Shown: positions 7,587 to 40,546 of the stretch, piece after piece
Numbering within the stretch: position 1 is the first letter of the stretch
How the letters are laid out: the number at the start of each line of letters is the position of its first letter
DNA from: an uncultured delta proteobacterium
Lineage (GTDB): Bacteria > Myxococcota_A > Polyangia > Fen-1088
Length of the DNA: 64,000 nucleotides
Assembly (NCBI GenBank): GCA_963796685.1
Contig: CAWCMR010000001.1
Span: 64,001-128,000, forward strand
Direction: 5' to 3'
Position numbers and translations under genes: made by a program
Notes under the pieces: model-generated
What the model saw: the letters and a program-made list of their open reading frames with translations, nothing else
What the model was told of the DNA's origin: nothing
The model's database searches: none

Positions 7587-7757
7587 GCTTATTGGGGGCA
7601 TGCTCTGACTCTCACCGTCACGAACTGTCACAGCAACTCTCACAGTTCGCCCGTCCTGTGCCGAAAGTGGATCTGATGAAATCGTCGTGATATCGAGCGG
7701 TTCTCCTCGGTCCGCCCCAGCTCAAGATCGGTGAGGACCAGGGGTTTTGGTACCCTG

Positions 7758-8087
7758 ATGGCCACGAGAAAGACTTCCCTGAACTTGCCGTTGCCGCTCC
7801 AGTTTCTAGCGGCGTGGCTCGCGGTGTGGCTCGGCCGGGTTCTCCAAGAGCAAGTCGACTATCTAAAGGCTGAGAATCTGCTCCTACGAGTAAAGCTCGG
7901 CACGAAGCGGTTGAGTCTTACCGACGCGGAGCACTGTCGGCTGGCGATGCTGCGAAGACAGGGGCGGCCGAAGACCGCGGCTGACATCGCGGCCCTCATC
8001 GTCAGGATGGCGAGCGAGAACAGCTGGGGCTACACACGCATCAAGGGCGCGCTCAAAAACCTGGGCCACAAGGTCACAAGTTGGTAA
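7758..8087 (+). mobile_element. Integrase-core (rve-type DDE) transposase remnant, N-terminal part, internally deleted
   Basis: QEQVDYLKAEN...LTDAE..RLA followed by GRP...LIVRMASENSWGYTRIKGALKNLG; catalytic core absent. Confidence 0.8.
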
Positions 8088-8165: not shown

Positions 8166-10404
8166 TCAGGAGGAAGACGGTGCTGACTCTGGTGGCTCCA
8201 ACGGCGCCCACTCGCGAAGTCTCGCCTGCCAATAGCCAAAGGGTATGCCGCTGCCAAGGTAATCCGGAATCGACTTTAGCTTCGCGGCCGCTCGGACCCA
8301 AACCGGCCCTGTGTCGAGCACGAAAGTCTCGGTCAGTGCGGACAAATACTCATACCCGAGAGCGACCACACGTGCGCGTAGCTCGTCGAGCACGATGGCC
8401 TGGATCTCCGTTTGATTCTTGACCGCAGGTACGATGGCCATGGCCTGCAGATAGAACGTGTTGCCTTCTCCGTGGTGCGGATCCGAGTGCACGCCTGCCT
8501 CATCGTAATTCTCGAGCGGACTCCCCAGCGCATAGGCAATGATGCGGCCCGAGACCGAGTCGCGCAAAGCGACCCCTATCCCTCGCGCCGCGGTCATCGA
8601 GATCTCGAGAGCGCTCGCCGGATATTGCAGCAAGGGCCTTCGGCCCGAGCGCAAAGTCTCTTCGGGGTACTGTGCGATGGTGCCGTACCTAGCGATCTCT
8701 ACCGCCATGATTTGTTCAAGCAGGGGCTCGAACGCCGCTGCATTCAAGTCGACAACTTGGACTCCGGCACGCGGGACGTCGAGCGCCCCCACGCGGAGTC
8801 GGCCCATTAGGAGGCCCCGCCTGGGCATGTCCGGAGCGGACATCGTCGATGGCACTCTTTAACAGGCTCACTGCTTCTTCCAGGGCCCTCGGGTGCATGT
8901 CGAATCGGGGATAGAATCGCAGGGTACGTTCCCCAGCAGGCAATAGAATGAGCCCTCGCCGGAAGGAACGGTCCCGAAGGGCATCGCGCAAGTCGGGGCG
9001 CGCGACGTCGAAGGCGAGCATGCAACCCGCTCCACGGATGTGATGGATGAGGTCACGGTACTCGAGCTCCAACGCTTTGAGCTGGGAGCGCGCGAGAGCC
9101 CCGGTGCGACGAACCTGTTCGAGGTCTACCTTCTCAAGCGTGGTCAAGAGGCGGATCATGCCGACCGAATCGCCCTCCCACGTGGTGTTGAACTTCTTTT
9201 CTTCTTGGAAGAACGCCGCGAGCTCTTCGCTTACGAAAAGGATCCCGTTCTGCGCCTTCTTCGCCCACATGACAGCGTCCGGAGGCAGCGGGAGGTCGAA
9301 GGCTTGGTGCGCCCAAAACGAGCCCGTTAGCCCGCCCCCGGTCTGCACTTCGTCGAACATGAGCGGAACGCCGTACAGAGCAGTAAGCAAGCGAAGCCGT
9401 CGAAAGAATTCTGGACGAGCGATTCGGACGCCGCCTTCACCCTGGATGGGTTCCACCAGCACGGCCGCCGCCCGAAGCGCCCTGCTCAGGATTTCCTTGG
9501 GAATCGCCGCGCGAGCGCCATCGAGTCGATGCAATAGTTCGTCGTTAGGCGCCCGCAAGAGCAGTTCGATGAGCTCCATGTCATGTTTGAATCCATCCTT
9601 GCTCCGAAGCTCCGTCGCTCTTCGCCCGGTGAGCAGCTCCCAAACCCGACGCAGGCTACGTTCCTCTCGACGGCTCGTATCCTGGGGAGAATCCGGATCT
9701 TCGAAGGGGAATGGGACATGGGGCCAGTCGAAGGTGGGGAATCCGGCACGTGCCTTCTTTCGTTGCGTGACCGCCAGACATCCCAGCGTACGCCCGTGGA
9801 ACGCGCCGTCGAACGAGATCACGAACAGGGCGGATGTGGATACGTCGGTCATGCGTACGCGATGGAGCAGGACGGCCTTCATGCCATTTTCGACTGTCTC
9901 CGCGCCCGTGTTGACCACGAAATGGCGAGGTGTTCCGGACGGCGCAATGGCATCGAGCCGGCTCTTCAAGCGAAGCGACAGGGCGGTCTGATACTCGCAA
10001 TGAGCATAGCGAGAAACGAGGTTCGCCGGTGACGAGAGTACGGCAGCCACCATGTCAGGATCGTTTTCGCCGAACGGTTGGGTCGCGATCTGGGCGCCCA
10101 AGTCCAAAAATCGGTAACGCGCGCCGGAAGCATCGGAGTCGACGGTGGCGAGGTAGGGACCCACGCTTTCCGATGCGTCGAAGGCCACAGGAAGCGAAAA
10201 GAACAGGCCGCGAGAGGCAGCCTCCAAGGCTCGGTGCGAGGCCGGCAGGAACGCCGCTACGACCTCGTCCAAGGGACGAGCGTGATCGAGCCACGCATCT
10301 GGCACATGAACACGGAACTCGCCTGCCCGATACTGGGCGTCGAGCTCTCGGACCCGTTGCACGAACGCCGCAACCGCTTGCACCGGAGCTTCGAGATCGA
10401 TCAT
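8166..10404 (-). pseudogene. Class III PLP aminotransferase (lysine epsilon-aminotransferase-like) with C-terminal GNAT-like domain, frameshifted near 8800
   Basis: FDGAFHGRTLG, EPIQGEGG, FDEVQTG, WAKKAQ, NTTWEG motifs; protein-like sequence continues in overlapping ORF 8166..8855. Confidence 0.75.
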
Positions 10405-10845
10405 GGCAAATCCAGCATACCCTGCCGGTGTCGGTCGCGCCGTCGACACGCGCTGGGCGAACAGACCTGCAATTCGATGGAGGCTATTTCTTCGCGGGCT
10501 ATTTCTTCGCGCTCGAGCCAGGCGCGGACGATCCTTGGTGCCGCACCGGCTGCACCGGTGCCCCGTCTTCCGGGGTCTCGCCAATGTTGAGTGCCACGGT
10601 CTCGCCGGCGTGAACGCCTTCCAGCACGGAGGTCAACGAGGATGGCGAACATCGCGTCGATCATGCGGGGACCACCAAGGTCAGGCAATGCCGCCTTCGT
10701 CCATCCATTTGCGGTCGTCACCGACGGCAAATCCGCTCCTCGGATGGCAACCTGGCGAAGGACAACCACGATCCCGCTAGCTGGTCCAGGGCCACCGAGC
10801 CCGTCTATCCTCGCGGAATACCTCGGGATGCGGAAGGCAGCCAGC

Positions 10846-10911
10846 ACGGTGGTCGCCTGTCGCGAGCGGCTCGGCGGATTACTCAAGTTCTACCATCGGG
10901 AAGCCGCCTGA
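10846..10911 (+). mobile_element. Integrase-core transposase remnant, extreme C-terminus
   Basis: VVACRERLGGLLKFYHREAA* is the typical C-terminus of the family seen at 7758. Confidence 0.75.
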
Positions 10912-11237
10912 ACGGCTCGGTCGAATATTGGCACCAGACGCGTTGTCAATCTCGTTAGGACGAAGACGCACGATTCGCGCCAGGCTGCGATCGGCTCTCC
11001 TGGGTTACGCGCTCGCGGTACTTCTGAAGGCGCTCGACGTACTCTCGGGTGCTCTTGGCAAATCGGTGTGTGTGCTCGCGGCACCCATCGCACCTCAATG
11101 TAGCGCCGATCACTGGCAGCGCAGCCGGCGCAATGGGGATGCGCGAAATGTTTACGTGGATGCAATATCACAGAAGCAAAGGCGTGCACCCGGGTGGCAG
11201 GCATGGGGACAAGCGCCCTGGCAGCGCTCAGTCTGGC

Positions 11238-11381
11238 GACGATCGAGCAGAAGAGCGGCATTTCAGCCGCGCTGAGCGCGATCGCCCTATGTCGCCAAAA
11301 CCAATGAGATCAGGCGCTTGGACCCAGATGGCGCCGCGCTCGACCAGATCGCCAACTGGCGCTTCTCGAAGATCGCCTACA
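11238..11381 (+). repeat. Dispersed noncoding repeat, copy A
   Basis: GACGATCGAGCAGAAGAGCGG...CCCTATGTCGCCAAAAC.AATGAGATCAG.CGCTTGGACCCAG shared with 23437 and 25390. Confidence 0.85.
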
Positions 11382-12492
11382 TCGTTGAAGGACAGCCGGT
11401 GATGTGCATCGGTCTGTTCAAACTCGCATTGTCACGTTGATGGATAGTCCCATCACCGAGATTGTCGCCGAGGACGTCCACCCGAATCGTAGCGGTGGTT
11501 ACCTTGCTGACGCCGAGATAGACAAAGACCATCACGCCCAGTGCCGCCAACGCCAGGAGGGCAAGCGGCGATGACAGCAGGACGAGCCCCAGCCGGATGT
11601 CGGGCGGCCGCGCGCATGGAGAAATCAGGGCCAAAGCCGGCACCACGTAGAGGAGGCAGGCGAGCGCCATCCACTGGTAGGCGCTGAGCCGGCCCTTGCC
11701 TCGGTAGTCGGCGCGCAGGAATTCGCTGAAGAAGCGCCACGAGAAGGCCACGCAAAGCGACAGGGTGCCGGCGGCGCGGAAATCCCCGCCGAGAAACAGT
11801 GTCCCGCTCGCCAGGCTTGCCGCAGAAAGCACCACCGCCGACATGGCGGGGATGGGCAGCAAGGGAATGCCCTCGCAATGGCCCGCGTACGCTGCCTTGC
11901 GCGTGCCCCCGAGAACCACCGTCGGCCACCATCCGAAAAGCGCCTTCACGCCGGGACCGCAATCGTCCAACCGGCGCCCGTAACAGCAGCCGAAGCTGAT
12001 GCAGGCAAGTCTGCCGATGCCCTCGCCAAGCGGGTAAGCCACGGCGATGGCGCTGATGAGGGGAACGGCGTCGTCCCGGCCGAGGAGAACGTCCACCCCA
12101 AGGGCGGTCCAGGGCAGAAACAGGGCGGCCACGAACACGGCACCCCCGACGGTGTAGGTTCCGCGTCTGCGCTCGACCAAGCGGGCGACCAGCCCCGCGG
12201 CCGGCAGGGCCACGGCCAGCATCGCGCCGAGCACGAGAACCAAGGCGTGCGCGGGCACGCCGGCTGCACCGGCAAGCACCAACGCGAGGGCAACGGCCAG
12301 CACCATCCCGGTCATTTGCATGACCCCGTACCAGGTCAAATTCACGCCTCGCCACAGGTTCCCGTCGATACGCCGCAAAGGAACCGTGGCCAGGATCTGC
12401 ATGTTCTCGCGGGGGAGCACGCGCAGCCCCCAGGTGAGTATGGCGGATACCAGGCCGCCCTGCCCCAGCACGAAGAGGGTCTCCGCACTCAT
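11377..12492 (-). CDS. Prolipoprotein diacylglyceryl transferase (Lgt)-like membrane protein, non-canonical
   Basis: Multiple TM helices; EGIGRLACISFGCCYG and RFFSEFLRAD Lgt-type motifs; ATGA overlap with upstream gene. Confidence 0.75.
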   Translation of the reverse strand: MSAETLFVLGQGGLVSAILTWGLRVLPRENMQILATVPLRRIDGNLWRGVNLTWYGVMQMTGMVLAVALALVLAGAAGVPAHALVLVLGAMLAVALPAAGLVARLVERRRGTYTVGGAVFVAALFLPWTALGVDVLLGRDDAVPLISAIAVAYPLGEGIGRLACISFGCCYGRRLDDCGPGVKALFGWWPTVVLGGTRKAAYAGHCEGIPLLPIPAMSAVVLSAASLASGTLFLGGDFRAAGTLSLCVAFSWRFFSEFLRADYRGKGRLSAYQWMALACLLYVVPALALISPCARPPDIRLGLVLLSSPLALLALAALGVMVFVYLGVSKVTTATIRVDVLGDNLGDGTIHQRDNASLNRPMHITGCPSTM

Positions 12493-13511
12493 GCCACGGG
12501 CTCCGCGACGCCCAGTCGCTGGGCGATGGACGAGCGCACGCGCACCTCGGTTTCGGCCAGAGGCGCGCGGAAGGCGAGAGAAAATCGGCTGGCCACGTCG
12601 GAGCGTTGCTGGGCGCGCACGAGATCGGGGCTCATGCGCACGCGGCCGCGCTCGAAGAGCAGGACATCGGTGCTGCCGCCCGGCCGGTATCGACTCTTGG
12701 GTGCCCCCCGGCGCAGGAACAGTCCCCGCGTCATGGGCTTGGGCGAAGCGTATTTCTCCTCGCTGTAGCACTGGACGATGTCGCCGATCATCAGGGCCGC
12801 GACCTCCACCATGGCCACCAAGCCCACCTGACTGCCGCCCTGCACGTCGGTGTCGATGAGGGTCACGTGGCGGCGATTCTTGGAATAAGGCGTGACCACC
12901 TCGACCACCGCCGCGGGATTGCAGGCATGGCAGGCACCGTCGAGCGCGAAGAAATCCTTCACCACGCCGGCCACCGGCGCATGGTTGTAGTGATACTTGT
13001 CGAGGGTCAGTCGAAAAACGGCCCAGTCGCCGTCGGCGAAACGCCGCCACCAAGCGTGCCCACCCAGCAGCTCCTTCAGGTCGAAGAACTTGCCCTTGAT
13101 GAAGAGCGGGCTGCCGTCCGCAAACGATCCGCACACCAGGCGCGAGTCGGCGGGGGCGACCACGGCGTGCTCGTCCTTGCTCATGGGCCGCCGCTCCCAA
13201 TAGCGAATCTTGCGCTCGAAGACCTGGGCCAGCGAGCGCAGACTGTCGGGGTCGTCGAGACATTCCGTCCAGTCCATGCCACACGAGAGCATGAAGCGCC
13301 GGCCGCCGGCGAAGCAGCGGCCCACGAATGAGTCGTAGTTGAGGAAGCCGAGGAACGACGACATGCGCGGGCTGGTCATGGCCGCGAACAGGCGCGGGGC
13401 CTTCTCGCGCACGGGCGAGTAGAGGAAGCGAATGGCGCTGTCCCAGTACAGCCGTTCGTCGCGCACGCCGCCCGATACGCGGTCGATGTACTGGTGGACG
13501 CCGTCACGCAT
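12489..13511 (-). CDS. Phosphatidylserine decarboxylase-family proenzyme
   Basis: VAPADSR, IKGKFFDLKELL, FRL..DKYHYNHAPVAG, NRR, and PGGST self-cleavage motif. Confidence 0.88.
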   Translation of the reverse strand: MRDGVHQYIDRVSGGVRDERLYWDSAIRFLYSPVREKAPRLFAAMTSPRMSSFLGFLNYDSFVGRCFAGGRRFMLSCGMDWTECLDDPDSLRSLAQVFERKIRYWERRPMSKDEHAVVAPADSRLVCGSFADGSPLFIKGKFFDLKELLGGHAWWRRFADGDWAVFRLTLDKYHYNHAPVAGVVKDFFALDGACHACNPAAVVEVVTPYSKNRRHVTLIDTDVQGGSQVGLVAMVEVAALMIGDIVQCYSEEKYASPKPMTRGLFLRRGAPKSRYRPGGSTDVLLFERGRVRMSPDLVRAQQRSDVASRFSLAFRAPLAETEVRVRSSIAQRLGVAEPVA

Positions 13512-15879
13512 CGCCGCCCTCGCCCACCACGGTCACCGCCAGGATCAGGCTGATGAGACGCAAGATCTCCTCCGTGTTCAGCCGATCGTCGAGGAGCTCG
13601 CCGTGCACGGCCGCGAGATAGGCATCGGGGTTGGCGAGCAATCCGAGATCGCCCCACTGCACGCCCCACAGGCGCGCGGCGGCCGAGGAAAGCTCCTCCC
13701 GCAAAAGCAACAGGGCCTCGTCGATCTGCGCGCGACGCAAGCGCCCGCGGTAATAGCGCTCGGCCGCCAGGTTGAAGGTGCGCGCCTCGACCTTCATGGG
13801 ATCGCGTGCCCCGGTCTCGCCCAGGATGCCCTGAAGAAGCCGGTGGGACGCCCGCGCCGTGGGATCCGCGAGACGGTGATCCAGCTCGTCGAGGACTTCG
13901 CCCATGCCGAGCGTTTCGATGAGATCGGGGGCCTCCTGGCGCAACAGGCGCAACAGCCCTCGGCGGTACTCATCGGTGCGAACCCTGTTGTAACCGGGGT
14001 AGCGCCGGCTGGGCCGAATCTCGTGGGTGTGTGAAAGAACGGCTTTGAGAAACCGATTGGTGGTGGCCTCGTGGACGAAGAAGGTCGGCAGACCGATGGC
14101 GCAGTCGAACACCACCTGCCGGCGCTCGCTCTCGATGGTGGGATCGTCGGGAATGTGGGCGTGCGTGAAACGGCCGGTGGCCATGCAGCGGTAAGCAAAA
14201 GCGCACAGTAGGCGCTGCAACCCGACCGCGTGTCCCATGTCCTCGCCGAAACGCTCGAACAGGCTGTATTGCCGGGCCTCGAAGCCCGAGAACCCCATGA
14301 CCGCCTGCTCGCGCAATTTGACCAGCAGGTAAAGCGACATGCGCGTGTCGAACACGCCCAGACTGGCCAAGTCGCGCTTGAGCCGGTCCGAGTTGCCAAG
14401 CACGCCGGAAAGCGACGGGCTGGTATTCGTGCTGAGCAGGAACACGAGATAATCGATGAGCCTGAAGTCAGGCACCCAGTCCCCGCGCAGACCGAAGACC
14501 GAGCTCAGCGCGCGGTCGATCCACGCGGGCCCGCAGGGCGTGAAGGTGATGCCCAGGGCGCGCAGATTGGCCTTGCCCTTCCAGCGCCGCCACAACATAC
14601 GCAGGTGGGTGAAGTCGAGCTCGTGGGGCAAAAAGCCGAGAGCGCTCTCAGGATGAAAGTCCTGAAACCCCAAACGGTAGGGCGCGGCGCTGTACGTGCC
14701 CACGAACAGCGGCAAGAAATGCTCCATGATCTTGATGGCCAGATCGCCGAAATACTTCTCGTCGCGCGCGCCGAATCCGGAATCGCCGGTGGCAAGGAGG
14801 CCGGTCAGGCGCTTGCTGCCGATGCTGACATGCACGCCGTTGTTGGCCAGGCTGAGATTCGACGTGTTCGGCATCACGACCAGGTTGTTGACGATGATGC
14901 CGGCGTCGCGCAGCTTCTTCACGCCGTTGAGCTGGCTGCGCGAAACCACCTCGTGGCAAAGCCCCATGTAGGCGCTCTTGTCTTCCCCACGATCCCAGCC
15001 CGACAGGCACGGGTTCATGAACAGCTCGCGATAGAAGGAGTCCGAAATGAGTCTGTTCAGCTCGCGCTGCCGGACGGGCGGCGTGGGGGCGTGACAGGCG
15101 GCCGCCTTTTGCCCGGTGGCCTCCAGCTCGTAGCGCCGGTTGGCGTAGGCGAGAAGAAGCTGCGTGAGCAGAAAGCGTCGCCCGGACTCCCGGGCCAGCG
15201 TGCGTCCGCCGCCAGCTTCGGGCGCGAGATTGACGACATTGAACGAGCAGGTCTCGGGCGAGGTGTTGTCGCTCATGAAATGGGCGAAGAGGCGCCGCCC
15301 GGTCTTGCGCACGGCCTCGGGCCGTTCGGGCAGGGCCGACACCGCGTCGGCCAGCGCCAGCTTGAGGAGATAGCTGATGGGAACGCGCGCGTACTCGATG
15401 CCCCGCTCCACCGCGATGAACTTATCCGCATCGCCGCGCAGGCGGTTCGATCCATCGGACTTGTCGGCGCACAAGTCGCCTGCGAAGACCTCGGCAGCCG
15501 CCGCTCCGAGCAACCGGCGCGGGAAGCGCACCCAGTCGTTGTCCCAGACCTGGTCGGGGTTGGCATCGAGGAAGCGCTCGAGGGCGTGCGCTTGCCTGGG
15601 AGCGGTGTCGCCCACGGCTGCCCGGCGCAGGATGTTGGCCAGGAAGTCCGAGCCCGCGATCGCCAAGGGCAGATCCACCGTGGAACGGCTGCCCTGCACG
15701 GACGCCTGTAGCTCGGCCTCGGCGCCGCCGGTTGCATCGGCGCCCACGAAGGGTAAGCGCCCGACGTCCTGCGCGGAAGCCATCCCCAGCGCCGAGCGCA
15801 ATCGCTCGATGCTTGGCGCGGCGCCAAGCGCCGCCGCGACCCCTTGCGAAGAAGGGGCGACCCCGGCCTGCCGGCTCAT
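13504..15879 (-). CDS. Large hypothetical protein, putative glutamine-synthetase/GCS-fold carboxylate-amine ligase
   Basis: ~790 aa coherent ORF coupled to the decarboxylase gene; motifs TGGAEAELQ, NTSPET, NNGVHVSIG, GFEAR. The ORF is secure; the function is inferred. Confidence 0.6.
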   Translation of the reverse strand: MSRQAGVAPSSQGVAAALGAAPSIERLRSALGMASAQDVGRLPFVGADATGGAEAELQASVQGSRSTVDLPLAIAGSDFLANILRRAAVGDTAPRQAHALERFLDANPDQVWDNDWVRFPRRLLGAAAAEVFAGDLCADKSDGSNRLRGDADKFIAVERGIEYARVPISYLLKLALADAVSALPERPEAVRKTGRRLFAHFMSDNTSPETCSFNVVNLAPEAGGGRTLARESGRRFLLTQLLLAYANRRYELEATGQKAAACHAPTPPVRQRELNRLISDSFYRELFMNPCLSGWDRGEDKSAYMGLCHEVVSRSQLNGVKKLRDAGIIVNNLVVMPNTSNLSLANNGVHVSIGSKRLTGLLATGDSGFGARDEKYFGDLAIKIMEHFLPLFVGTYSAAPYRLGFQDFHPESALGFLPHELDFTHLRMLWRRWKGKANLRALGITFTPCGPAWIDRALSSVFGLRGDWVPDFRLIDYLVFLLSTNTSPSLSGVLGNSDRLKRDLASLGVFDTRMSLYLLVKLREQAVMGFSGFEARQYSLFERFGEDMGHAVGLQRLLCAFAYRCMATGRFTHAHIPDDPTIESERRQVVFDCAIGLPTFFVHEATTNRFLKAVLSHTHEIRPSRRYPGYNRVRTDEYRRGLLRLLRQEAPDLIETLGMGEVLDELDHRLADPTARASHRLLQGILGETGARDPMKVEARTFNLAAERYYRGRLRRAQIDEALLLLREELSSAAARLWGVQWGDLGLLANPDAYLAAVHGELLDDRLNTEEILRLISLILAVTVVGEGGDA

Positions 15880-16264
15880 GACCGGCTCCGGGGGCGAAAT
15901 CGTGGATGGACTGCAGTTTCCACGGAATTCGATTGTCCGCCTTCCATGTGTCGAAACGCGCACGTTTTGCCGAACTTTCTGTGAGCAATGCCGCTGGCAA
16001 CGCATGACGCATAACAGGCCTATTCCCGAGGACAGCACAGGTTTGTAACCAACCCATCTGCAGAGATGCGGCGCCGTGTCCACACAACGAGAGTGACGAT
16101 CGCACGACGTCTTTGAGACAGGGGGGTGAATTCGACGCGAGGCCCTCCGCTTGTCATTGTATTCCACCTCCGAACCGGGCCAGTCTCGGCGGCGGAAGAC
16201 GAGGCATGACATCCTACGCGGGCAGATCTGGTAGGCGGACGACCAAGCGGGAGCGCATTCGGCC

Positions 16265-17080
16265 GTGAACGATCCCACCTACTTCATGGAAAGCGAGGAC
16301 GAATCCCTGCGCCTGGACATCAAGACCGACCCCGGCGCGGTGGAGGAGCAAGCACGCTGGGCTGGCGTCGGTCCGGGTATGCGGGTGGTCGACCTGGGCT
16401 GTGGCGCCGGCAGGACGACCCACATCTTGCACCGGCTGGTCCAGCCGGGCGGTGAGGTGGTCGGGATCGACGGCTCGCCGCAACGGATCGCGTACGCCAA
16501 GGAGAATTTTTCCGAAAGCGGAATCGCCTACTTGCAGAGAAACGTTCGCGACCCGCTCGTCGAGGTGGGTATGTTCGACCTGGTATGGAGCCGGTTTTTG
16601 CTCGAGTACTTCGCCGACGAATCGTTCGCCATCGTCAAGAGCGCTTACCAAGCCCTCGCACCGGGAGGAACCATCTGCCTGATCGATCTCGACCAGAACT
16701 GTCTGGGACACTTCGGTGCGCCCGCACGGCTTGAAAAGACCTTATGCAACGTCGTGCTTGCCATGGCGAGACAATACGGTTTCGACCCTTTTGTCGGCAG
16801 AAAACTCTACGCCTACCTTTACGACCTGGGATGCGCGGATATCGAGGTGCGGATGTCGGCTCACCACCTCATCTACGGAGAGCTGTCCGAGACCGATCGC
16901 TTCAACTGGTTGTCCAAGGCCGAGGCGACCCGGAATGCTGCGGGGCTCTTCGCCGACAGCTACCCCGGCGGGTACGAGGAATTCCGACGCGAGTTGGTCG
17001 CCTACCTCGAGCACCCCAGGCGGTTCATCTACACGCCCCTCATCATGTGCAAGGGGAAGAAGCCAGCCGCTGGGGGATGA
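16265..17080 (+). CDS. Class I SAM-dependent methyltransferase
   Basis: VVDLGCGAG, VVGIDGS, FDLVWSRFLLEY, LAPGG motifs. Confidence 0.9.
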   Translation: MNDPTYFMESEDESLRLDIKTDPGAVEEQARWAGVGPGMRVVDLGCGAGRTTHILHRLVQPGGEVVGIDGSPQRIAYAKENFSESGIAYLQRNVRDPLVEVGMFDLVWSRFLLEYFADESFAIVKSAYQALAPGGTICLIDLDQNCLGHFGAPARLEKTLCNVVLAMARQYGFDPFVGRKLYAYLYDLGCADIEVRMSAHHLIYGELSETDRFNWLSKAEATRNAAGLFADSYPGGYEEFRRELVAYLEHPRRFIYTPLIMCKGKKPAAGG

Positions 17081-17086: not shown

Positions 17087-19111
17087 TCAAGCAATCTTCA
17101 GCGCAACCGGCGTCTTGGGCGCAGGAGTCTCCTCGGGCAGCGGAGTCTCCTCGGGCGGTCGCGCCGACACCGGGGCCCCAAGCTCGAGCTGGGCGGGATA
17201 GGCCTGCTCGAAGTAGCGAAGAAAGGCATCCACCAGGCGGGGCTCGAAGCTCTTGCCAGCCTCTCGCTTCAGAAGCGCGATGGCCTCTTCTCTGCGCATG
17301 GGCTCGCGGTAGTGCCGCTTGGCGGTGATGGCCTCGAAGAAGTCGGCCACGCCTATGATCCGCGCTCCCAGCGGTATCTGCTCTCCCCCGAGCCCCCGGG
17401 GGTACCCGCTGCCGTCCATCTTTTCGTGGTGCGCGCCAGCGATGGCCGGGACCTGCCGGTAGATGCCCTCGAAGCTGATCTGGCGCAAAATCTTCTCGGT
17501 TTGCTCCGCGTGAATCTTGACCAGCTCGTACTCGCGGGCGTTCAGCCGTCCAGGCTTGCGTAGGATCGCGTCCGGCACCGCGAGCTTGCCGTAGTCGTGC
17601 AAGAGCGCCGCCGTCGAAATTACCTCGCGCTGCTCTTGCGAAAGCCCGAGCTCGTCGCAGATTCCCACCGCGTACTCCGTGACCTTGTCCGAGTGACCCC
17701 GGGTGAGCGGATCGCGCGCGTCGATGCTGGCGGCCAGCCCGCGTAAGATCGAACGGAATTGACGATCCTTGGATTTCAGAAGCTCTTCGTTGCGCAAACT
17801 GATGCCGACCACTGCGGCCACACCGATGAGCAGGCTGCGGTCGGTCTCGACCAGCGGTCGCTTGGTCTTGACATTGTCAACCGCCAGAACGCCGATCGAT
17901 TCCCCGTTGCTAACGATGGGGCAGCAGATGAAGGACTCCGCACCCAGCTCTTCGGCATAGGACATGCTCTTGAGAGAGAGATCTTCTTCAATTGCCTCCA
18001 GGTTGCTCACCAGAAACGACCTCTGTTGCTTGAAACAGAGCACGAAGACGCCCCGCGATCCCGGCCTGTCCAGGTGAAAGGAGGTTCGCCGCAAGAGCTT
18101 GATCTGACGGTCGTCGTGGCCGTATCCGGCGCCGAAAACGAGGTGCTTGCTGCCGCGGTCCGCCAGCAGGATCATGCAGCGGTCGTAGTCGAGCCACTTC
18201 TTGCAAGCTTTCACCACGCTGGAAAGCACATCTACCGAGCCGGAACGCCTGCTGATGGACTGGCCGATCTCGCTGGTCAAGACCGCGTTGTTGTGGTTCA
18301 CCTCGATCTGGTGGACGAGTTGATGGGTCGAGTCGAACAGGCTGTGCAGGCTCGCGGCCATGTCCTTCTTTTCGAGCGAAAGGTAGAGCGCGGTGAGGAG
18401 CGCCAGGATCGCGAGCGCCCCCGGCAAGACCTGGGTCACGCCGAAAAGGGGCGCACGGATGGCGGACCAGACAACCAGCGGGAGGAGGAATGCGGCCGCA
18501 TGGTTCCGCGCCCGCTTGAACAGGTCCGCTCTGGATACGTTCCAGGAAATGATGTACCGGCAGGTTTGTCCCCCTCGGAAGAGGCACTCCGGATGTTCGA
18601 CCTCCGGCGTCCCACGCGCGAACAAGAGGGTAACTGCTTCGAAAAAGCCCATGCGATTCTCGCATTGATAGGGCTTCTCCTGCACACCCGGCTCGAAGGT
18701 GGTGGTGACTTCCACCCGGTTCGAGCTGAGGCTCCGCGATGCAAGGGTCGAGGAACGGGTCAATCTGCGCGCGCCTCTTCCAATCAGCTCGTAGGCTCTG
18801 CCAGGCCCGACTGCGCCTAGAATGAGGAGCTGCATGGCTCCCATGGCATCCGGAGACGCGGCATAGCGGCCGGCCTCGCGCGCGATCGACGCGTTGCTGG
18901 TCAAGAAGGATAGCCTCTCGTAAAAACGGTCGGTCTGGTCCTGGGTGAACCAGTGCCCTTCGTCGGCCACCTCGTGGGCGGTCATACCGGCGTACTCCAG
19001 CAGACTCGAAACCCGGACCTGCGGATATTTCCTCTCGATGAGTCGTATGTAATTGTCGATGATTCGACTGTTATACAGGCGGCGACCGTCGCTTGTCATC
19101 GGAGCTCCCAT
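17087..19111 (-). CDS. HD-GYP phosphodiesterase with N-terminal V4R/H-NOX-like region, 2 TM helices and GAF domain
   Basis: IDARDPLTRGHS, LLHDYGK, HHEKMDGSGYP, ADFFEA; EHPECLFRGGQTCRYII V4R-like motif; ICCPIV...IGVLAVDN GAF. Confidence 0.9.
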   Translation of the reverse strand: MGAPMTSDGRRLYNSRIIDNYIRLIERKYPQVRVSSLLEYAGMTAHEVADEGHWFTQDQTDRFYERLSFLTSNASIAREAGRYAASPDAMGAMQLLILGAVGPGRAYELIGRGARRLTRSSTLASRSLSSNRVEVTTTFEPGVQEKPYQCENRMGFFEAVTLLFARGTPEVEHPECLFRGGQTCRYIISWNVSRADLFKRARNHAAAFLLPLVVWSAIRAPLFGVTQVLPGALAILALLTALYLSLEKKDMAASLHSLFDSTHQLVHQIEVNHNNAVLTSEIGQSISRRSGSVDVLSSVVKACKKWLDYDRCMILLADRGSKHLVFGAGYGHDDRQIKLLRRTSFHLDRPGSRGVFVLCFKQQRSFLVSNLEAIEEDLSLKSMSYAEELGAESFICCPIVSNGESIGVLAVDNVKTKRPLVETDRSLLIGVAAVVGISLRNEELLKSKDRQFRSILRGLAASIDARDPLTRGHSDKVTEYAVGICDELGLSQEQREVISTAALLHDYGKLAVPDAILRKPGRLNAREYELVKIHAEQTEKILRQISFEGIYRQVPAIAGAHHEKMDGSGYPRGLGGEQIPLGARIIGVADFFEAITAKRHYREPMRREEAIALLKREAGKSFEPRLVDAFLRYFEQAYPAQLELGAPVSARPPEETPLPEETPAPKTPVALKIA

Positions 19112-21296
19112 TCCTTCGACCCGCTCGAAGAATCAAATTCATCGATCGATAAAAGCTATCGGAAGAAGAATGAGGCATCAGAGACCACATCACGTAGCGT
19201 TTCTCGACCGGTATATTCAAGCTTTTCGCAGCAGCTTCGGGATAGATAAGGACGGGCAGTTGTTCCTGACCCAAGCTCTTCATTAGAACGGATAGGGCAT
19301 CGTAAACGACTTCAATTCTCAACTCTTCTTGATCCAGCACGAACAGGGTGACGGAGTTGGTCAGATCGGAAAGGTTCAGTCCAATATCGGCGAGATTGAC
19401 CATGACGACGGCATGGAGGCGGTCATTTCGCTTGAGTGCGTAGAGGTGGCGCTCTCGCTTCAATCCCAACTTGTGGAACTGCTCGCCCAGATCGCTGGTT
19501 TGGGAACCCTGGGAGTGTTCCCCAACCCTGCCGCGCTCAGGCTCCGCTGGGCAAAGCCCGGCTCCGCCTACGCGGCTATGATCGACATCGCCTGGTTCGA
19601 GGTCGAGCGCGCCGATCATCAACCCCCCACCCGATTCGTGCTGGCAAAAACTGGATAGCTCGCGCAGGTCGTCGTCGTCGGTCGGGCTCAAGCAGTACCC
19701 GTGAAGGCTGCCTTCGACATTGTGGTCGCACTGCAGATGAAAATAGGCGAAGAGCGCCTCGGAACAGATCCGCGGATCGTCGATACCGCGGCATAGACCG
19801 CCGAATACGCTCCGGGGGAAACGGTTCTCCGGCCGATAGAAGCAGATCAAGTACTCCATGTGCATGAAGGAGAAACGACACGATTCGTTGATGAAGCGAG
19901 TGATGTGATCGAGCACATTCAGGCCGGCCCTGTACGTGTAGTTGGTGCGCGCCGCGTGGTGGTGAATCAGCCAGGTGCTGTCATAAAAGCGCACCATGGC
20001 CATGTGGCCGAGGATCTTGCCCTGGTCCTGATGGATGAAATGGCGGGCGATGCTGGGGCTACGAGCATAGAGCTTCTCGTAGGTCTGCTTGATCTGTTCC
20101 CGGTTCTTCTGGATAAAATCGTACTTCTGCGGGTAGATGAAACCAGTCTCGAAGAAGAAGCTCCACAGATCGTCCATGTCGACTTGGTTGCAGACATAGG
20201 AGAGACGGTCATCGGCGTGGTGCAGAAGCCCCACCAGCTGAACATGGTCTGCGACATCCATGTCGAGCAATGCCAGCCCGTACTTGAGGCAGGAGTCTTC
20301 GGACCCGTGCTCCAGTACCTGGCGGTGGACGACCTGCGCTCGACAAGAAAACCTGAAGTTGTTGGCAAGGCATAGATCAAGTCGGGGGATCATCAGACCT
20401 GGCATCAGAACTGCGTTGCGCGCGTACTCTTCCACCGCCAGACCAGAGGCGGAGAGGTCCAGCACCTTGAGCGATACCAGCCGTCCGGTGAGCGGGTGCT
20501 CGAAGACGATCGTCGGCGCGGGAAGAAGCTGCTGGCGAAGGCTGCGGTGCTGCTGGCGTTCGAACCGCTGGATGTGGTCCTGGGTCGGCTCGAACACGTA
20601 CTCCCGGCAACTCCGTCCGCCGGTCTGGCTGACAATCCGGCAGTCGCCCGAGAAGAGGATTTCGCGGTCGTTCGAGATGACCACCATCACTGGAGTGCCA
20701 GCGGTGAGCCAGCCAAAGGTTTGCGGCGGCGAGGCGTGAACGCGCGCGCGGAACGAGAGGGCGCTGAAATCGACCAGCGTGCCCTCGAAACGCGAGCCGC
20801 TCTTGAAGAGCTGTACCTGAATGCCGCTGCAGGGGCTCCTCACCACCCGGCGGGAGTACACCTCGGTGCAGACCTCGGGAAGCTCGATGACGATCCCCTC
20901 CCCATCGATCGATCTTACTTGACCAATGCCCTGCAGCAGCTTCTGTTCGTCCGGGACGAACAGCGATGAAAAGAGGTAGTATCTAGAGAGAGCCCGGGCG
21001 GCGTGCGGGTCGACCCAGGTGCAGCGAAGCCGGTTCTCCTGGCACGGCTGCGGCCTGGCTTCCACGCGTAGCGTGTGTCCATACCTCACGTGCTCGAATT
21101 CGAGCAGGACGGTCTTGTTCTGGAAGTTGAGGTAGTTGAGCTTGTTGATCAGACGTTCGCGTCTGACCGGTCGCGGCGCAGCGGCGAGAGAGGTGGCATG
21201 GATCGCGCCCGGGATTTTCGACGACTCGGCCATCGCTTCGCCGTCTCCGGGCACACTGCGCTCGCCGACACTGAAGTGCTGTTGAGCCTGGTCCAT
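19071..21296 (-). CDS. Tandem PilZ-domain protein with C-terminal GNAT-like region
   Basis: RRVVR...DFSALS and RSLRQ...DLSASG PilZ motifs; GHMAMVRFY..TWLIHHHA in C-terminal half. Confidence 0.78.
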   Translation of the reverse strand: MDQAQQHFSVGERSVPGDGEAMAESSKIPGAIHATSLAAAPRPVRRERLINKLNYLNFQNKTVLLEFEHVRYGHTLRVEARPQPCQENRLRCTWVDPHAARALSRYYLFSSLFVPDEQKLLQGIGQVRSIDGEGIVIELPEVCTEVYSRRVVRSPCSGIQVQLFKSGSRFEGTLVDFSALSFRARVHASPPQTFGWLTAGTPVMVVISNDREILFSGDCRIVSQTGGRSCREYVFEPTQDHIQRFERQQHRSLRQQLLPAPTIVFEHPLTGRLVSLKVLDLSASGLAVEEYARNAVLMPGLMIPRLDLCLANNFRFSCRAQVVHRQVLEHGSEDSCLKYGLALLDMDVADHVQLVGLLHHADDRLSYVCNQVDMDDLWSFFFETGFIYPQKYDFIQKNREQIKQTYEKLYARSPSIARHFIHQDQGKILGHMAMVRFYDSTWLIHHHAARTNYTYRAGLNVLDHITRFINESCRFSFMHMEYLICFYRPENRFPRSVFGGLCRGIDDPRICSEALFAYFHLQCDHNVEGSLHGYCLSPTDDDDLRELSSFCQHESGGGLMIGALDLEPGDVDHSRVGGAGLCPAEPERGRVGEHSQGSQTSDLGEQFHKLGLKRERHLYALKRNDRLHAVVMVNLADIGLNLSDLTNSVTLFVLDQEELRIEVVYDALSVLMKSLGQEQLPVLIYPEAAAKSLNIPVEKRYVMWSLMPHSSSDSFYRSMNLILRAGRRNGSSDDKRRSPPV

Positions 21297-21528
21297 GACT
21301 TTGATCCAAATCTCGAAGATGTTTGTGTGGAGGTGGGAGATCGAATACGTGAGGGGAGAGCATTGTAATCAGGAATTGGCGAGCTCTACTAGACCGGAAC
21401 GAGAACAGTCGTGTGACAAAGAGAACAACCATGTGACTCCGATGTGTGCCTTATGCGACACCCGGGCACATTGAGGTTTTCCATTCTGTCGCAGTTACGT
21501 TGCATCGCGGGGCGTACCATGAGGCACT

Positions 21529-23371
21529 TTGGACTGGCTGGAACATACTGCGGCAGAGGAGCCGGTTCGGGGACGAGACCACTGGCGGGAGGAAGAGGAA
21601 GCGCTGCGCACAATCATCGACACGCGCCAGATCACCTCTGACTTTCAGCCTATCGTAGATTTGCACCATGGCACCGCGCTGGCCTGGGAGGTCTTGTCGC
21701 GTGGTCCGGAGTTGCTTGTTTCGCCGGCTGAAATCTTCGCCAAGGCGAAAGCCCTCGGCAAGCTACCAGAGTTGGAGGAGGTCTGCCGCGACGTGGCTTT
21801 GTGCTCGATTGCGCGGCTCCCTCCATCCGCGCGGTCACGATCGTTCTTCATCAACGTCAGCCCGAACGTGATCGGCGATCCGCAACCGATGAATGGACAC
21901 CTGCGGGCAGAGCTCGCCGACCTGGGACTCGATCGGCGAAACTTCGTCATCGAGATCATCGGGCGCGAATCGAGCGAAGGCCACGCCTCCCTCGAGCAGC
22001 AGATGCATTACTACGTCGAACAAGGATTCAGGATCGCCCTCGATGATATCGGCGCTTGCGGCGCGGACCTCGTCAAGCTCGTGACGTGCTCGCCGCATTT
22101 CATGAAGCTCGACATGACACTCTCGCGCGAGATCCACCGCCACGCTCACAAGCAGCGCCTCGTAAAGTCGCTGATGGCCTTCGCGGCCAGCGTGGATAGC
22201 GCCCTGATCGCCGAGGGAGTGGAAACCTGGGAAGAGTTGGAAACTCTGACACGCCTAGGGGTGCGCTACGCCCAGGGGTTCTTGTTCGCCCGGCCAGCCA
22301 AGATACCCTCGGATGTGCCAGAGGAAACCCGTCTCGAGCTGCGACGGATCATGCGCCAGTTCACCTACCGCGAGTCCGACCTCAACGAAACGGTCGGTCC
22401 GCTTGCGATTCGCTGCGAGACCATTCGCGAGAAGGAAAAGCGGGGCGAGGACGTGAACCGCATTTTCCAATGCCAACCCTCGCTCGATCATCTGACCATC
22501 CTACGTGAAGAGCGACCTGTCGGTCTGATCACGCGCCAGCACTACTACAACATGACGGGTGGCCCGGTTGGCTACCACCTCTTTCAGTGGAAGCCAGCCG
22601 AAGAGCTGGCCCGCCCGACGCCCCTCATCGTGGAGAAGCTCGATCAACGTGACGGCACTCGCAAAGCTAGCGATGGAGCGACCACCTGACGAGCTTTACG
22701 ATCCCGTGATCGTGGTGGACACATCCGGGAACCTGGTCGGCACCGTCACCATCCGGCAACTCATCATACGCTCGACCGCTCTGGAGGTTCAATCTGCCAA
22801 GGGAGCGAGTCCCCTGACCGGATTGCCTGGGAACCGAAGCATCGAGAGCTGGATCCTGAACGCATTCAATCAGACAGATGCTCACGTCCTCTACGCGGAT
22901 CTCGATCGTTTCAAGGAGTACAATGACTGTTACGGATTTTTGCGCGGCGACGAAATGATCCGATGTCTTGCAGGAGTGCTGTCGCGTATCCTGATGGCAC
23001 TGTCACCGGAAGCCAAGCTGGGACACATCGGCGGCGATGACTTCGTCATCGTCTCGCCAGCGACCGTTGGCCCCGAGAGCGTCGAAGCCCTTTGCCGTCA
23101 ATTCGACCAAGCAAGGATCGATCTATTCGATCCGACGGATGTTGAGCGCGGCTACTTTCGCGCCACCGACCGACGAGGCCAAGAGGTCGAAGTGCCTCTT
23201 GTCACCTTGAGCGTGGCGGTTGTCCCGTGCGAAGCCGTGCGAAACGTCGAACACCCCGGAGCGCTCGCCCAAATGGCCGCTTCGCTCAAACGTAAGGTCA
23301 AGGAAATAACCACGACCAGCCGAAAGAGCGAGTTCCTGTTCGAGCGCCGGAAACTGCGGCCCACGATCTAG
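21529..23371 (+). pseudogene. EAL-CBS-GGDEF protein, frameshifted near 22635
   Basis: FQPIVDL..WEVLSR, IALDD, IAEGVET, QGFLFARP in ORF 21529..22689; PLTGLPGN, DLDRFKEYND, HIGGDDF in ORF 22559..23371. Confidence 0.85.
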
Positions 23372-28364: not shown

Positions 28365-30458
28365 TTACGGGATGTTCTCGTAGGTACCGACGGTGCTGCC
28401 GCTGGCATCCGTGCAGGTGATCTGGCTGCCCGGAGTGCTATCGCACACTCCACTGCAGGCGATGGGCGCCGCCATGCTACACACCGCGATGACCGTGCCA
28501 TTCGTGCGATAAGCCGTGAACTTCCAGTTCTTCTGGCCAACGGTGCCCACGCGGTCCATCACCATGAAGCCAAACCCGTTCGAGAAGGCAAACGTGTTGA
28601 CCATGGTATTCGCGGCCGGCAAGTCGGAGTTGGGGTCGAACACGGCAGGCAGCGCGGCATCCAGGTTGTCGCCGCTATTGCCGGCAACGAAAGTCGCTGG
28701 GTGGTTGCTGGAGAAGTTCAAGGCCTGGAAGTCGTGCACGTGGCCATGGAGGGCGATGGCGATGTTGGGCGGGTAGTAGTTGCCGGGGTAAGCCGCGTTC
28801 ATGACGGACTGCAGACCGGGGTTGCCCACCGTTGGCGGACTGCCCGCGGAGTAGCCAAGGACCGGGTGGTGGACGGCGAACAGGTTCAACATGTTCGGGG
28901 TCGCCAAGCTGGCCGCCTCGGCGAGCTCGGTCGTGTAGGGCATGAAGGCCGGAGGCGAGTAGACGCTCTTCGAGGTGTTCGACGAGTCGAATACGATGAA
29001 CTGCGTGTCGCCGAACGCGACGGCCCACGGATCGTTGTAGTTTCCCACGTTATCGTTGGCCGGAACGTCGCAGGTCTTGACGTCGGTGCTGTCGAACGGG
29101 TTCGGATCGAGATAGCGATACCAGCCCTGCCCGGCGCGGTTGCAGACCTCGTGGTTGCCGCGGACCATGACCCACGGGGCAGCCGCGAGCAGGGGCGCCG
29201 CCGGCGTGAAGAAGTCCGCCGCCCAGGCGTCAGAACCGTAGCCCCAGGGCTGTCCAGCGCAGGCTGTGTTGCCTGGAGGGCAGGGATTATCGCGATACTC
29301 ATAGTCGCCCACGTGCAGGACGAGATCCGGCTGCATGGCCGCGGCCGCCGACGAGATGACGGAGAAGGGCCACTGCGTGGGATCGGCGCAGGCCTGGTAG
29401 ACGTTTCCGATCGAGATTCGGCACCCGGTGTCACCCAGGATCACGACGCGGTTGACGACCGGCTTAGGCAGCGGCAGCTTGATGCCGGTCACAGTGGCCA
29501 TAGTCGCCCCCGCGGGGAGAAGGAATTCGCAGGTCGTCGTCGTGAAGATGGAGGGCTTGGAGTTGCCCGACGTTGTCGCCGCGGCGAGCGTCGTATCTGT
29601 GCTCGTGGTGCGGATCGGAAGGCTGGCCGGCAGCGCACGGACCGTCATGGCGCTCGCGACCCCGTCGACGGTGATCGAGGGGCACACGGTGTACGGCGTG
29701 ATGAGCCGTGCGATGGCCCGGCTGTTGGCGCCGATTTCGACCCACGCCTGTGCGCCGACAGCCGAGTCCGCAGGGCAAGTCAGCAGGAGGTTGAAGGTGT
29801 CGGTGCAACCCGGATCCCCGTCGCTGACTGTGAGGGTGAGCGAGGCATTTCCCGGCCCGCTGCATGCGAAGATCGGGTTCGCGACCGTCGTGCTGCTGAG
29901 CGTTCCGCCGCTGGCGGTCCACAGATAGGAGATCGGCCCCGGACCGCTGTCGGGGTCGGTGGCCGTGCTGAAGAGCGCGATGGTGTTGCCCACGGGCGCA
30001 TTCGCGCTGATGCTGGCGACGCTCGCGCAAACGTTGATTTGCCCGCTCACCGAGATGCTTCCGGTGTTGTGCGCTTGTTTGCAGTCGAGATGCACCGCGA
30101 CGGCAGTCGTCATCGACGCCGCCACGGCAAAGGGCGCCGAGGTCCCCGTGCAGGTCGTGGTTCCATCGGTGGACGTTCCCGTGAGCGTCAGGGTGTAGGG
30201 CGAGCCCGCCGCGATGTTGCCGATCACCACGCTGATGGTCGCGGAGTGCGAGACATCCACGGTGCCCGAGTAGGAATGCGGGCCAGTGGTCGAATAGGCC
30301 ACGGTATTCAAGAAGACGCCCGGCCCAGCTTGAAGCTGAAGCTCTACGCGGCCGAGGGCACCGCTGCCATTGTCGCCACTGCTCGGTCCCCCGCTGTTGC
30401 AGGCTGCGACACTGGCGCACACGAAAACGAAGAGCAGACTTGCGTTGAGCTTGATCAC
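28365..30458 (-). CDS. Secreted calcineurin-like metallophosphoesterase lipoprotein with Ig/PKD-like N-terminus
   Basis: GDTGC, HVGDY, RGNHE, HHP, GHVH motifs; lipobox VAAC; GTG start after GGAGG. Confidence 0.88.
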   Translation of the reverse strand: MIKLNASLLFVFVCASVAACNSGGPSSGDNGSGALGRVELQLQAGPGVFLNTVAYSTTGPHSYSGTVDVSHSATISVVIGNIAAGSPYTLTLTGTSTDGTTTCTGTSAPFAVAASMTTAVAVHLDCKQAHNTGSISVSGQINVCASVASISANAPVGNTIALFSTATDPDSGPGPISYLWTASGGTLSSTTVANPIFACSGPGNASLTLTVSDGDPGCTDTFNLLLTCPADSAVGAQAWVEIGANSRAIARLITPYTVCPSITVDGVASAMTVRALPASLPIRTTSTDTTLAAATTSGNSKPSIFTTTTCEFLLPAGATMATVTGIKLPLPKPVVNRVVILGDTGCRISIGNVYQACADPTQWPFSVISSAAAAMQPDLVLHVGDYEYRDNPCPPGNTACAGQPWGYGSDAWAADFFTPAAPLLAAAPWVMVRGNHEVCNRAGQGWYRYLDPNPFDSTDVKTCDVPANDNVGNYNDPWAVAFGDTQFIVFDSSNTSKSVYSPPAFMPYTTELAEAASLATPNMLNLFAVHHPVLGYSAGSPPTVGNPGLQSVMNAAYPGNYYPPNIAIALHGHVHDFQALNFSSNHPATFVAGNSGDNLDAALPAVFDPNSDLPAANTMVNTFAFSNGFGFMVMDRVGTVGQKNWKFTAYRTNGTVIAVCSMAAPIACSGVCDSTPGSQITCTDASGSTVGTYENIP

Positions 30459-31070
30459 GCTGGGCCTCCGATGGGGAATGGAATCCGAGTCGACGGTTTC
30501 GGTTCTTCGATTCCGCGCCTCGTGAAAGGGTTTGCAACAAAAGTGTTTCAGTCCGTGCCTCAGAGTACTTGCCCAATGCACAAGCCTGCGCTTGCGTGGA
30601 CAAGGATTCGGGCAAACAGCCGGCCGCAAAGTGCAAGCGGGCCTGCGGCGGCTGCCGCAACGAGACGGCTCATCGGCTACGCCTGTGCAAGAAGATCGGC
30701 GAAGCTCCTCACGCTTGAACAATCAAGGAGTCGGAAAGCAGCCCGCATACCCTCGTCCACACCCTGGATCTGTGCGCCCCGCACGTGCTCACCGGGTCGT
30801 GAGGCGGCGATCTGACTTGTCCAGCGCTCGTCGATCAGGCGCCATACGCGCGCGAACGGCATGCAAGCACGGGGCGTCAAGCGTGCGGTCTTCGGGCCTG
30901 CCAGCTGATGCCTTCCATCCATTGATGACATGCGGGCAGCTCCTTGGCCCGACCGCAGGATCGATTGAAGAGAGCCATGAATGATTCGACGGAACCAGGA
31001 ATCGGCAACCGCTTCGGAAAGATGTCCCGACCGGGGGCAACGTGCGTCCGCTACGCAGCCCGATAAGCCA

Positions 31071-40500: not shown

Positions 40501-40546
40501 GGCTTTCCTCATTGAAGCTTTCAGGTTCACGTATTCCAAACAACAC

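Follow-up and report, generated by a model that had tools for sequence, protein, structure and literature searches.

We identified three overlapping genes, here called A, B and C, in a 64,000-nucleotide stretch of the genome of an uncultured delta proteobacterium (the window; GenBank assembly GCA_963796685.1, contig CAWCMR010000001.1, positions 64,001–128,000 of the forward strand). Our analysis suggests, with slightly more confidence than doubt, that this trio is one conserved unit making a phosphorus-free, thioether-linked aminolipid during phosphate starvation, with a predicted head group whose composition matches that of a lipid class described in 2024. According to the available portions of that report, phosphate-starved Desulfatibacillum alkenivorans swaps nearly all of its phospholipids for glucuronosyl glycerolipids and sulfur-containing aminolipids (Ding et al. 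2024, PMC11181052), and the new aminolipid class was tentatively named N-butyramide cysteine glycerols (BACys) by its authors. An earlier sequence-only reading of the same DNA had proposed that a ligase, a decarboxylase and a lipid transferase act together to give either an unusual lipid head group or a lipidated peptide. A ligase, a decarboxylase and a lipid transfer acting in turn to give a new lipid head group is still the best reading, and peptide lipidation now appears less likely; the phosphate-starvation context and the match to BACys go beyond what that reading contained.

Three coupled genes and their predicted enzymes

The three open reading frames (ORFs) lie head to tail on the minus strand. 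Gene A (13504–15879) encodes a predicted soluble protein of 791 residues, which represents a new sequence family and has the carboxylate-amine ligase fold of glutamine synthetase and gamma-glutamylcysteine synthetase (GS/GCS fold). Gene B (12489–13511; 340 residues) encodes a paralog of the phosphatidylserine decarboxylase (PSD) family of pyruvoyl-type decarboxylases, and gene C (11377–12492; 371 residues) a divergent, Lgt-fold paralog of the membrane diacylglyceryl transferases. Genes A and B meet at ATGCGTGA, an overlap of 8 nt, and genes B and C at ATGA, an overlap of 4 nt; both junctions and the ORF coordinates could be read directly, in agreement with the same-strand, overlapping arrangement recognized earlier. 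As read from the sequence, gene B is translationally coupled to both A and C. A GGAG motif stands 9 nt 5' of the ATG of gene A (15879). The frame is open further upstream, as far as a GTG at 16278, and homologs of A start aligning only at residue ~20–40, which makes 15879 the likely start. A scan of 10300–16400 returned no promoter-like sites, and terminator-like sites were no more frequent than in shuffled sequences. No CDP-alcohol phosphatidyltransferase was found among the trio neighbours scanned, consistent with the previous observation that no phosphatidylserine synthase gene is adjacent.

Gene A has more than 2723 relatives in a 90%-clustered protein collection (677 representatives at 50% clustering), and the homologs among those listed are all named 'hypothetical'. 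Gene A matched nothing in Pfam or NCBIfam at E-values up to 0.1, phmmer and profile searches against PDB sequences were both empty, and a search of the ESM Atlas returned only that resource's own 'hypothetical' clusters. Its fold was recovered by structure prediction. In the AlphaFold2 model (predicted local distance difference test, pLDDT, 91.1; predicted TM-score, pTM, 0.92), which has no membrane-spanning segment, Foldseek ranked gamma-glutamylcysteine synthetases first (1v4g, 3ln7, 3ln6, 2d32, 1va6, and 3nzt), followed by Dop/PafA, yeast GCL, and YbdK; for GshA and GshF the E-value was only ~3e-3, with a probability of 1.00. Alignment of the model with VIA-align gave Z 16.8 for E. coli GshA (1v4g_C; 407 residues aligned at a root-mean-square deviation of 4.0 Å), 16.4 for GshF (3ln7_B), 15.3 for YbdK (1r8g_A; 334 of 352 residues aligned), 14–15 for PafA/Dop, 10.3 for yeast GCL (3ig5), and 5.8 for a type III glutamine synthetase (7u6o), while the next, unrelated chains scored no higher than 3.0. 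This AlphaFold and Foldseek comparison of 13504–15879, which the sequence-only reading had proposed as a check, placed GshA and GshF on top and bore out the assignment of A as a GS/GCS-fold, ligase-like protein, with GshA, YbdK, and PafA/Dop at Z 14–17. Since the fold matches and no described sequence family does, we consider A a new sequence family inside the GS/GCS carboxylate-amine ligase fold.

The four motifs on which the assignment had originally been based (TGGAEAELQ, NTSPET, NNGVHVSIG, and GFEAR) are all present in gene A. In a 37-sequence alignment (mean column identity 47%), D204, N205, P208, E209, R284, H309, N347, G348, H350, E386, E534, and R536 never vary, and conservation at E54 and E56 is 90% or higher. 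In the model, every motif falls on a beta strand (49–56, 209–211, 349–355, and 532–538), and the series G-A-E54-A-E56, D204..E209-T, G-V-H350, and E534-A-R536 parallels G-L-E-R-E, D..E-F-I-T, S-G-V-H-Y, and I-E-V-R of E. coli GshA, whose corresponding residues presumably bind metal and nucleotide. Fold and motifs together predict that A is an ATP-dependent carboxylate-amine ligase. Enzymes of the GS/GCS fold are known to activate the gamma-carboxyl of a glutamate, and we therefore propose glutamate as the acyl donor of A. The window's genome (26 contigs totalling 7.3 Mb, 88.6% complete) yielded no members of the GCS2 or GshA families, so A could be its sole ligase of the Glu-Cys type.

Gene B matches the PSD family PF02666 at 125.1 bits (cut-off 22) and carries the sequence RPGGST, but it falls below the cut-offs of all five NCBIfam PSD models listed (at best 123 versus 371 bits). 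Eight B orthologs from several phyla have D122, H174, H177, G278, S280, and T281 in common without exception, together with a conserved N-terminal extension of ~90 residues. By analogy with E. coli Psd, we take D122/H174/H177 to be the PSD triad and G278-S280-T281 to be the site of self-cleavage. Other PSD-family genes exist in the same genome, one much stronger (contig C17, 178 bits) and one comparable (contig C8, 124 bits, versus 126 for B in the same search), which makes B an extra paralog.

Gene C is likewise a divergent member of its family: its match to PF01790 is weak (31.8 bits, cut-off 24.9), and it scores 25.5 bits against the NCBIfam Lgt equivalog, whose cut-off is 334. Of the PDB structures, only E. 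coli Lgt (5azb) matches its AlphaFold2 model (pLDDT 90) significantly (Foldseek E 2.2e-4); VIA-align fits 232 of 284 residues to this structure at Z 13.3, with the next chain at Z 4.6. A canonical Lgt is encoded elsewhere in the genome (contig C11, 193 bits), so that C too is an extra paralog; the two proteins are ~22% identical. They have in common the motifs Y55-G56, G156..R161..C164..G168-C169..Y171-G172, and R253..E257..R260..D262..R264-G265 (numbered as in C), within which Y55, R161, R253, E257, R260, and D262 are invariant in C. The catalytic Arg and Glu residues of C are, we assume, the equivalents of R143, R239, and E243 of E. coli Lgt.

Linkage of the trio and its phosphate-related neighbours

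The gene-neighbourhood survey suggested by the sequence-only reading indicates that the trio is conserved across phyla. In a collection scanned at one genome per species, at least 532 species genomes encode A, and the best 80 loci were kept for comparison. These belong mostly to Geobacteraceae, Desulfuromonadales, Syntrophales, and Desulfobacterales, with further labels including Brocadia, Acidobacteriota/Blastocatellia/Terriglobia, and a few metagenome-assembled genomes of Firmicutes. Among the named carriers are the cultured Geobacter pickeringii, Citrifermentans bremense R1, Trichlorobacter thiogenes ATCC BAA-34, Geomesophilobacter sediminis, Syntrophus buswellii DM-2, Desulfonema ishimotonii, and Desulfococcus. 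Gene B lies directly 3' of A on the same strand at 75 of the 80 loci (the five misses being two contig ends and three loci with room), and C lies downstream of A on the same strand at 69, where the 11 misses comprise seven contig ends and four loci with room. All four of the genomes with room but without an adjacent C carry a full-length C-type gene elsewhere (~480–500 bits), which adjoins B in three. The unit is split in three genomes (L136, L137, and L138, in the genomes of L060, L031, and L051), in which a B-C pair lies away from A. In these split-unit genomes the lone A adjoins an alpha/beta hydrolase gene.

Co-occurrence follows the same pattern. In a 151-genome sample of the order containing Desulfonema limicola, A is found in 37 genomes and a C-type gene in 34, all of them within the 37, while 114 genomes have neither. 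Among the three A-only genomes, one has a partial match and an in-frame stop (G109), another a partial match (G155), and the third a full-length match on one contig with a small fragment on another (G179). Because of this linkage and co-occurrence, A, B, and C behave as one unit.

The neighbours of the trio suggest a link to phosphate starvation. When neighbouring ORFs of the 80 loci were clustered and then named by Pfam and NCBIfam, genes of phosphate uptake and its control recurred: PstS at nine loci (281 bits, cut-off 207), PstC/A at nine (recognized by clustering, in clusters shared with the pst operon of the window's genome), PstB at 10 (398 bits, cut-off 343), and PhoU at six (220 bits, cut-off 130). 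Polyphosphate kinase 1, with Pfam PP_kinase domains, neighbours the trio at eight loci, a Zn-dependent phospholipase C (PF00882) at 12, a DUF2062 protein (PF09835) at 15, and an 811-residue protein with a GT4 C-terminal half (cluster 5), whose best NCBIfam matches are lipid glycosyltransferases, at 19. A mixed cluster of regulators and kinases contains two further recurrent neighbours, a PhoB-like regulator (291 bits, cut-off 296) and a PhoR/PnpS-like kinase. In all, 15 of the 80 loci have pstS/C/A/B or phoU nearby, a figure that rises to 23 when ppk1 is counted and to 43 when loci with the Zn-dependent phospholipase C or the GT4 protein are included as well. The pst genes follow C on the same strand at L026, L029, L040, and L045, and do so at L075 with one gene in between.

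Two families without any Pfam or NCBIfam match, of 732 residues (nine loci; L067:7503–9701) and 255 residues (13 loci; L010:6418–7185), accompany the trio in members of the Geobacteraceae and Desulfuromonadales and may be additional pathway components. The 732-residue gene and the GT4 gene stand together between B and C at L057, L067, and L071, and the GT4 gene stands there alone at L062. A gene for a DksA/TraR-type zinc-finger protein (~140 residues) occupies the same position at L009, L024, L026, L028, L040, L045, L049, and L063, loci labelled Smithella, Syntrophaceae, or unclassified deltaproteobacteria; anywhere in the locus, this family occurs at 12 of the 80.

Upstream of A, 15 of 78 loci have the Pho-box-like direct repeat GTAACA-N5-TT[TCA]ACA, in every case on the same strand as the gene, compared with 0.9% of random windows from the same loci and 0.22 matches per 78 in shuffles. 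In the same Geobacteraceae genomes, a similar repeat (TGTAACA-N4-TGTAACA) lies ~75 nt 5' of pstS in three of four cases.

Signals of phosphate regulation were also sought in the window's own genome. A possible Pho box on the minus strand (16093–16120) consists of three YGTC-type hexamers (TGTCTC/CGTCGT/CGTCAC) at 11-bp spacing, 214–241 nt 5' of the gene A ATG; the degenerate three-repeat pattern has this one match in the 64-kb window, versus 0.02 expected. The stricter YGTCAY-N5-YGTCAY occurs at 22 sites in the genome versus four for the reversed control, with two sites at the pst operon (contig C16) and three in the window, at ~42571 (minus strand), 49126 (plus), and 56750 (plus). Phosphate-related genes elsewhere in the window encode a metallophosphoesterase (28365–30722), a PF04185 phosphoesterase (37561–40614), PPK2 (41590–42696), a GT4 protein (44579–46993), and PAP2 (47114–48499), and shortly beyond the end of the window there is a PstS-like gene (C1:131611–132390). 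The GT4 protein, encoded outside the operon on the minus strand, has 804 residues, Pfam GT4/GT1 domains, and a GT4 C-terminal half, and is 34% identical over 798 aligned residues to the cluster 5 family that neighbours the trio elsewhere.

Downstream of the trio in the window are a class-III aminotransferase with a long N-terminal extension (8716–10584) and a 229-residue ORF of no known family (8166–8855), and a divergent methyltransferase is encoded at 16265–17080; all three were rejected as parts of the system, as none of them occurs in any of the 80 related loci. An ORF at 7731–8087 resembles a transposase fragment, by eye only, suggesting a separate insertion. Further upstream, at 17087–22689, is a cyclic-di-GMP cluster encoding a 674-residue GAF and HD-GYP-type (HD_5) protein, a 741-residue PilZ-domain protein, and an EAL protein.

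A proposed route to BACys and its alternatives

The analysis demonstrates the predicted folds, the conserved catalytic motifs, the linkage and co-occurrence of the genes, and their neighbourhood of phosphate-regulon genes; the substrates, the order of the steps, regulation by PhoB, and the identification of the product as BACys are what we infer by combining these observations. In the proposed pathway, A would form an amide bond between the glutamate gamma-carboxyl and the amine of cysteine, which might be free or might already carry the lipid, to give gamma-Glu-Cys (C8H14N2O5S). C would move a diradylglyceryl group from phosphatidylglycerol onto the cysteine thiol and release glycerol phosphate, by which phosphorus would be recovered, a useful outcome when it is scarce. 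B would strip the alpha-carboxyl from the glutamyl part, leaving a 4-aminobutanoyl ('butyramide') amide on cysteine; it would act at this end because a pyruvoyl decarboxylase needs a free alpha-amino acid, and only the glutamyl part offers one. The pathway would thus yield S-(diradylglyceryl)-N-(4-aminobutanoyl)cysteine, with the head group C7H14N2O3S.

In composition, this head group agrees with the lipids of D. alkenivorans as presented in the available text of the 2024 report. BACys yields a head-group fragment of C7H13O3N2S+ (m/z 205.064; PMC11181052), and loss of CO2 from C8H14N2O5S gives, by arithmetic, C7H14N2O3S, the composition that this fragment implies. BACys appeared only at low phosphate, alongside glucuronosyl glycerolipids (PMC11181052), an association that fits the GT4 neighbour of the trio; the flanking glycosyltransferase and phospholipase C would account for the accompanying glucuronosyl lipids. 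No genes for BACys are named in those portions of PMC11181052. Our literature search found no paper that ties the trio to a function or to BACys, and a 2024 review of aminolipids (PMC11631085), searched by term, makes no mention of butyramide, Desulfatibacillum, or thioether.

Several points weigh against this pathway. Profile comparison by hhalign of A with 20 GCS2 sequences from the same phylum gave a probability of 1.7%, aligning only the GxExE stretch, and comparison with E. coli GshA gave 0.09%; as A has no sequence similarity to GCS families, its substrate is assigned from fold and motifs only. The three-repeat match upstream of A is weak because the pattern was chosen after looking, the nearest phosphate-related genes in the window lie 12–30 kb from the trio, and the evidence for Pho control from the window itself is indirect. 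The exact Geobacteraceae box has 1–4 sites per genome, and the genes that follow its remaining sites have no obvious link to phosphate (as judged from their first residues only), for which reason the strict box was rejected as a regulon probe. The distribution of A in the order of D. alkenivorans is patchy (37 of 151 genomes), so its presence in the BACys producer is not assured; D. alkenivorans was not among the best 80 loci, nor in two listings of 120 A homologs, and no search was aimed at its genome. The structure of BACys is itself tentative and rests, in the text available, on tandem mass spectrometry (MS2; PMC11181052). Finally, the formula C7H14N2O3S fits the isomer gamma-glutamyl-cysteamine equally well.

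This isomer would arise if the same enzymes worked in another order, with C making S-diradylglyceryl-cysteine, a sulfur analog of phosphatidylserine, B converting it to S-diradylglyceryl-cysteamine, the analog of phosphatidylethanolamine (PE), and A gamma-glutamylating the amine to give a gamma-glutamyl-cysteamine head group. S-glyceryl-cysteine is, by our reckoning, nearer to the normal substrate of PSD than a dipeptide lipid is, and A, with 791 residues versus the 518 of GshA, has ~350 unaligned residues that could handle a lipid substrate; the head-group formula, C7H14N2O3S, is by arithmetic identical to that calculated for the published fragment. However, the authors of the BACys report interpret the MS2 spectra as butyramide together with intact cysteine, which favours loss of the glutamate carboxyl (PMC11181052), and the model of A has no membrane-spanning segment, leading us to consider this order unlikely. 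The trio could also be a phosphate-starvation lipid pathway with a product other than BACys, for instance some other conjugate of a thiol or an amine, or an existing lipid amine to which a gamma-glutamyl group is added and later converted to 4-aminobutanoyl. Only the folds are established, and not the substrates; members of the GS/GCS fold accept varied amines, and, as noted above, A occurs in only some genomes of the order to which the BACys producer belongs. Yet two independent leads point to cysteine (thiol alkylation of the Lgt type, and Glu-Cys ligases as the best structural matches), decarboxylation yields exactly the composition given in the available part of the BACys report, and a product that kept its phosphate would not fit the putative Pho context. 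We hold the chances of such a different product to be low.

Dedicated lipidation of a peptide or protein, the other outcome envisaged by the sequence-only reading, would have C as a specialized Lgt acting on a particular lipoprotein and A as a PafA-like enzyme that ligates a glutamate side chain. Canonical Lgt does act on proteins, as is well established, and PafA/Dop are among the structural matches of A (Z 14–15), but the 80 loci contain no conserved small ORF or lipobox substrate gene with the trio, enzymes of the PSD type require a lipid that bears a free alpha-amino acid, and the neighbours are genes of lipid remodelling and phosphate. We consider this explanation very improbable. Plain housekeeping, in which PSD synthesizes PE and Lgt matures lipoproteins next to an unrelated hypothetical protein, is what the Pfam names of B and C would suggest. 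It is almost certainly wrong: the scores of B and C are far short of the NCBIfam equivalog cut-offs, and it is contradicted both by the better PSD and Lgt copies elsewhere in the genome and by the 151-genome sample of one order, in which 114 genomes lack the trio and its co-occurrence with A is strict.

Relation to known systems and significance

Each of the three proteins resembles a characterized enzyme. A has the fold of GshA (E. coli; 1v4g, 2d32), YbdK, the GshF N-domain, and PafA/Dop, and its acidic, His, and Arg motifs come in the same sequence along the beta strands; unlike GshA, to which it has no detectable sequence similarity, it carries the ~350 extra residues and is linked to PSD-like and Lgt-like genes. 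B has the PF02666 domain and the conserved Asp, His, and Gly-Ser-Thr self-cleavage residues of Psd, from which it differs in failing the equivalog cut-offs, in its N-terminal extension of ~90 residues, in being an extra paralog, and in its proposed substrate, a thioether lipid with a glutamyl head group in place of phosphatidylserine. C has the fold and the Arg/Glu/Gly-rich motifs of E. coli Lgt (5azb), and the proposed transfer of diacylglyceryl from phosphatidylglycerol to a thiol is Lgt chemistry; unlike Lgt, C is only ~22% identical to the canonical copy, and it would act on cysteine or a dipeptide, not on a lipobox protein.

As a system, the trio resembles the PlcP/Agt glycolipid, BtaAB betaine lipid, and OlsBA/OlsF ornithine lipid systems in its putative Pho-regulon context and in the adjoining phospholipase C and lipid glycosyltransferase. 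Unlike these, it uses a GCS-fold ligase, a PSD-type decarboxylase, and an Lgt-type transferase, and its lipid would form directly from a phospholipid via a thioether. Homologs of Agt and OlsF matter under phosphate limitation in Desulfovibrio alaskensis G20, according to the part of that study available (PMC5193443). The likeness to the BACys lipids of D. alkenivorans lies in the predicted head group, C7H14N2O3S, the composition of a decarboxylated gamma-Glu-Cys (PMC11181052, from the text available). The fold or superfamily of each enzyme is known already, as is phosphate-starvation lipid remodelling as a kind of system; what would be new is that these three enzymes are combined, that an Lgt paralog has a small thiol as its acceptor, and that the product is a thioether aminolipid.

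For microbes of soils, sediments, and stratified waters, replacing phospholipids when phosphate is scarce is a major adaptation. The genes known so far (PlcP/Agt, BtaAB, and OlsBA/OlsF) leave the sulfur aminolipids found in a sulfate reducer in 2024 unexplained. We put at about even chances the broader proposal that the trio is a widespread, so far unassigned route to this new class of membrane lipid, in which an Lgt paralog alkylates a small-molecule thiol rather than a protein, turning phosphatidylglycerol in one move into a thioether aminolipid, and a new family of GCS-fold ligases and a PSD paralog build the 4-aminobutanoyl-cysteine head group. It would then supply the genes for BACys and a marker for the replacement of phosphorus by sulfur and nitrogen in lipid remodelling in Geobacterales, Syntrophales, Desulfobacterales, anammox Brocadiales, and Acidobacteriota. 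If this is true, a lipid class gains its genes, Lgt-type enzymes gain a non-protein acceptor, and a large family of 'hypothetical' proteins of ~800 residues gains a function; metagenomes could be screened for the trait, with A encoded in at least 532 species genomes of the scanned collection.

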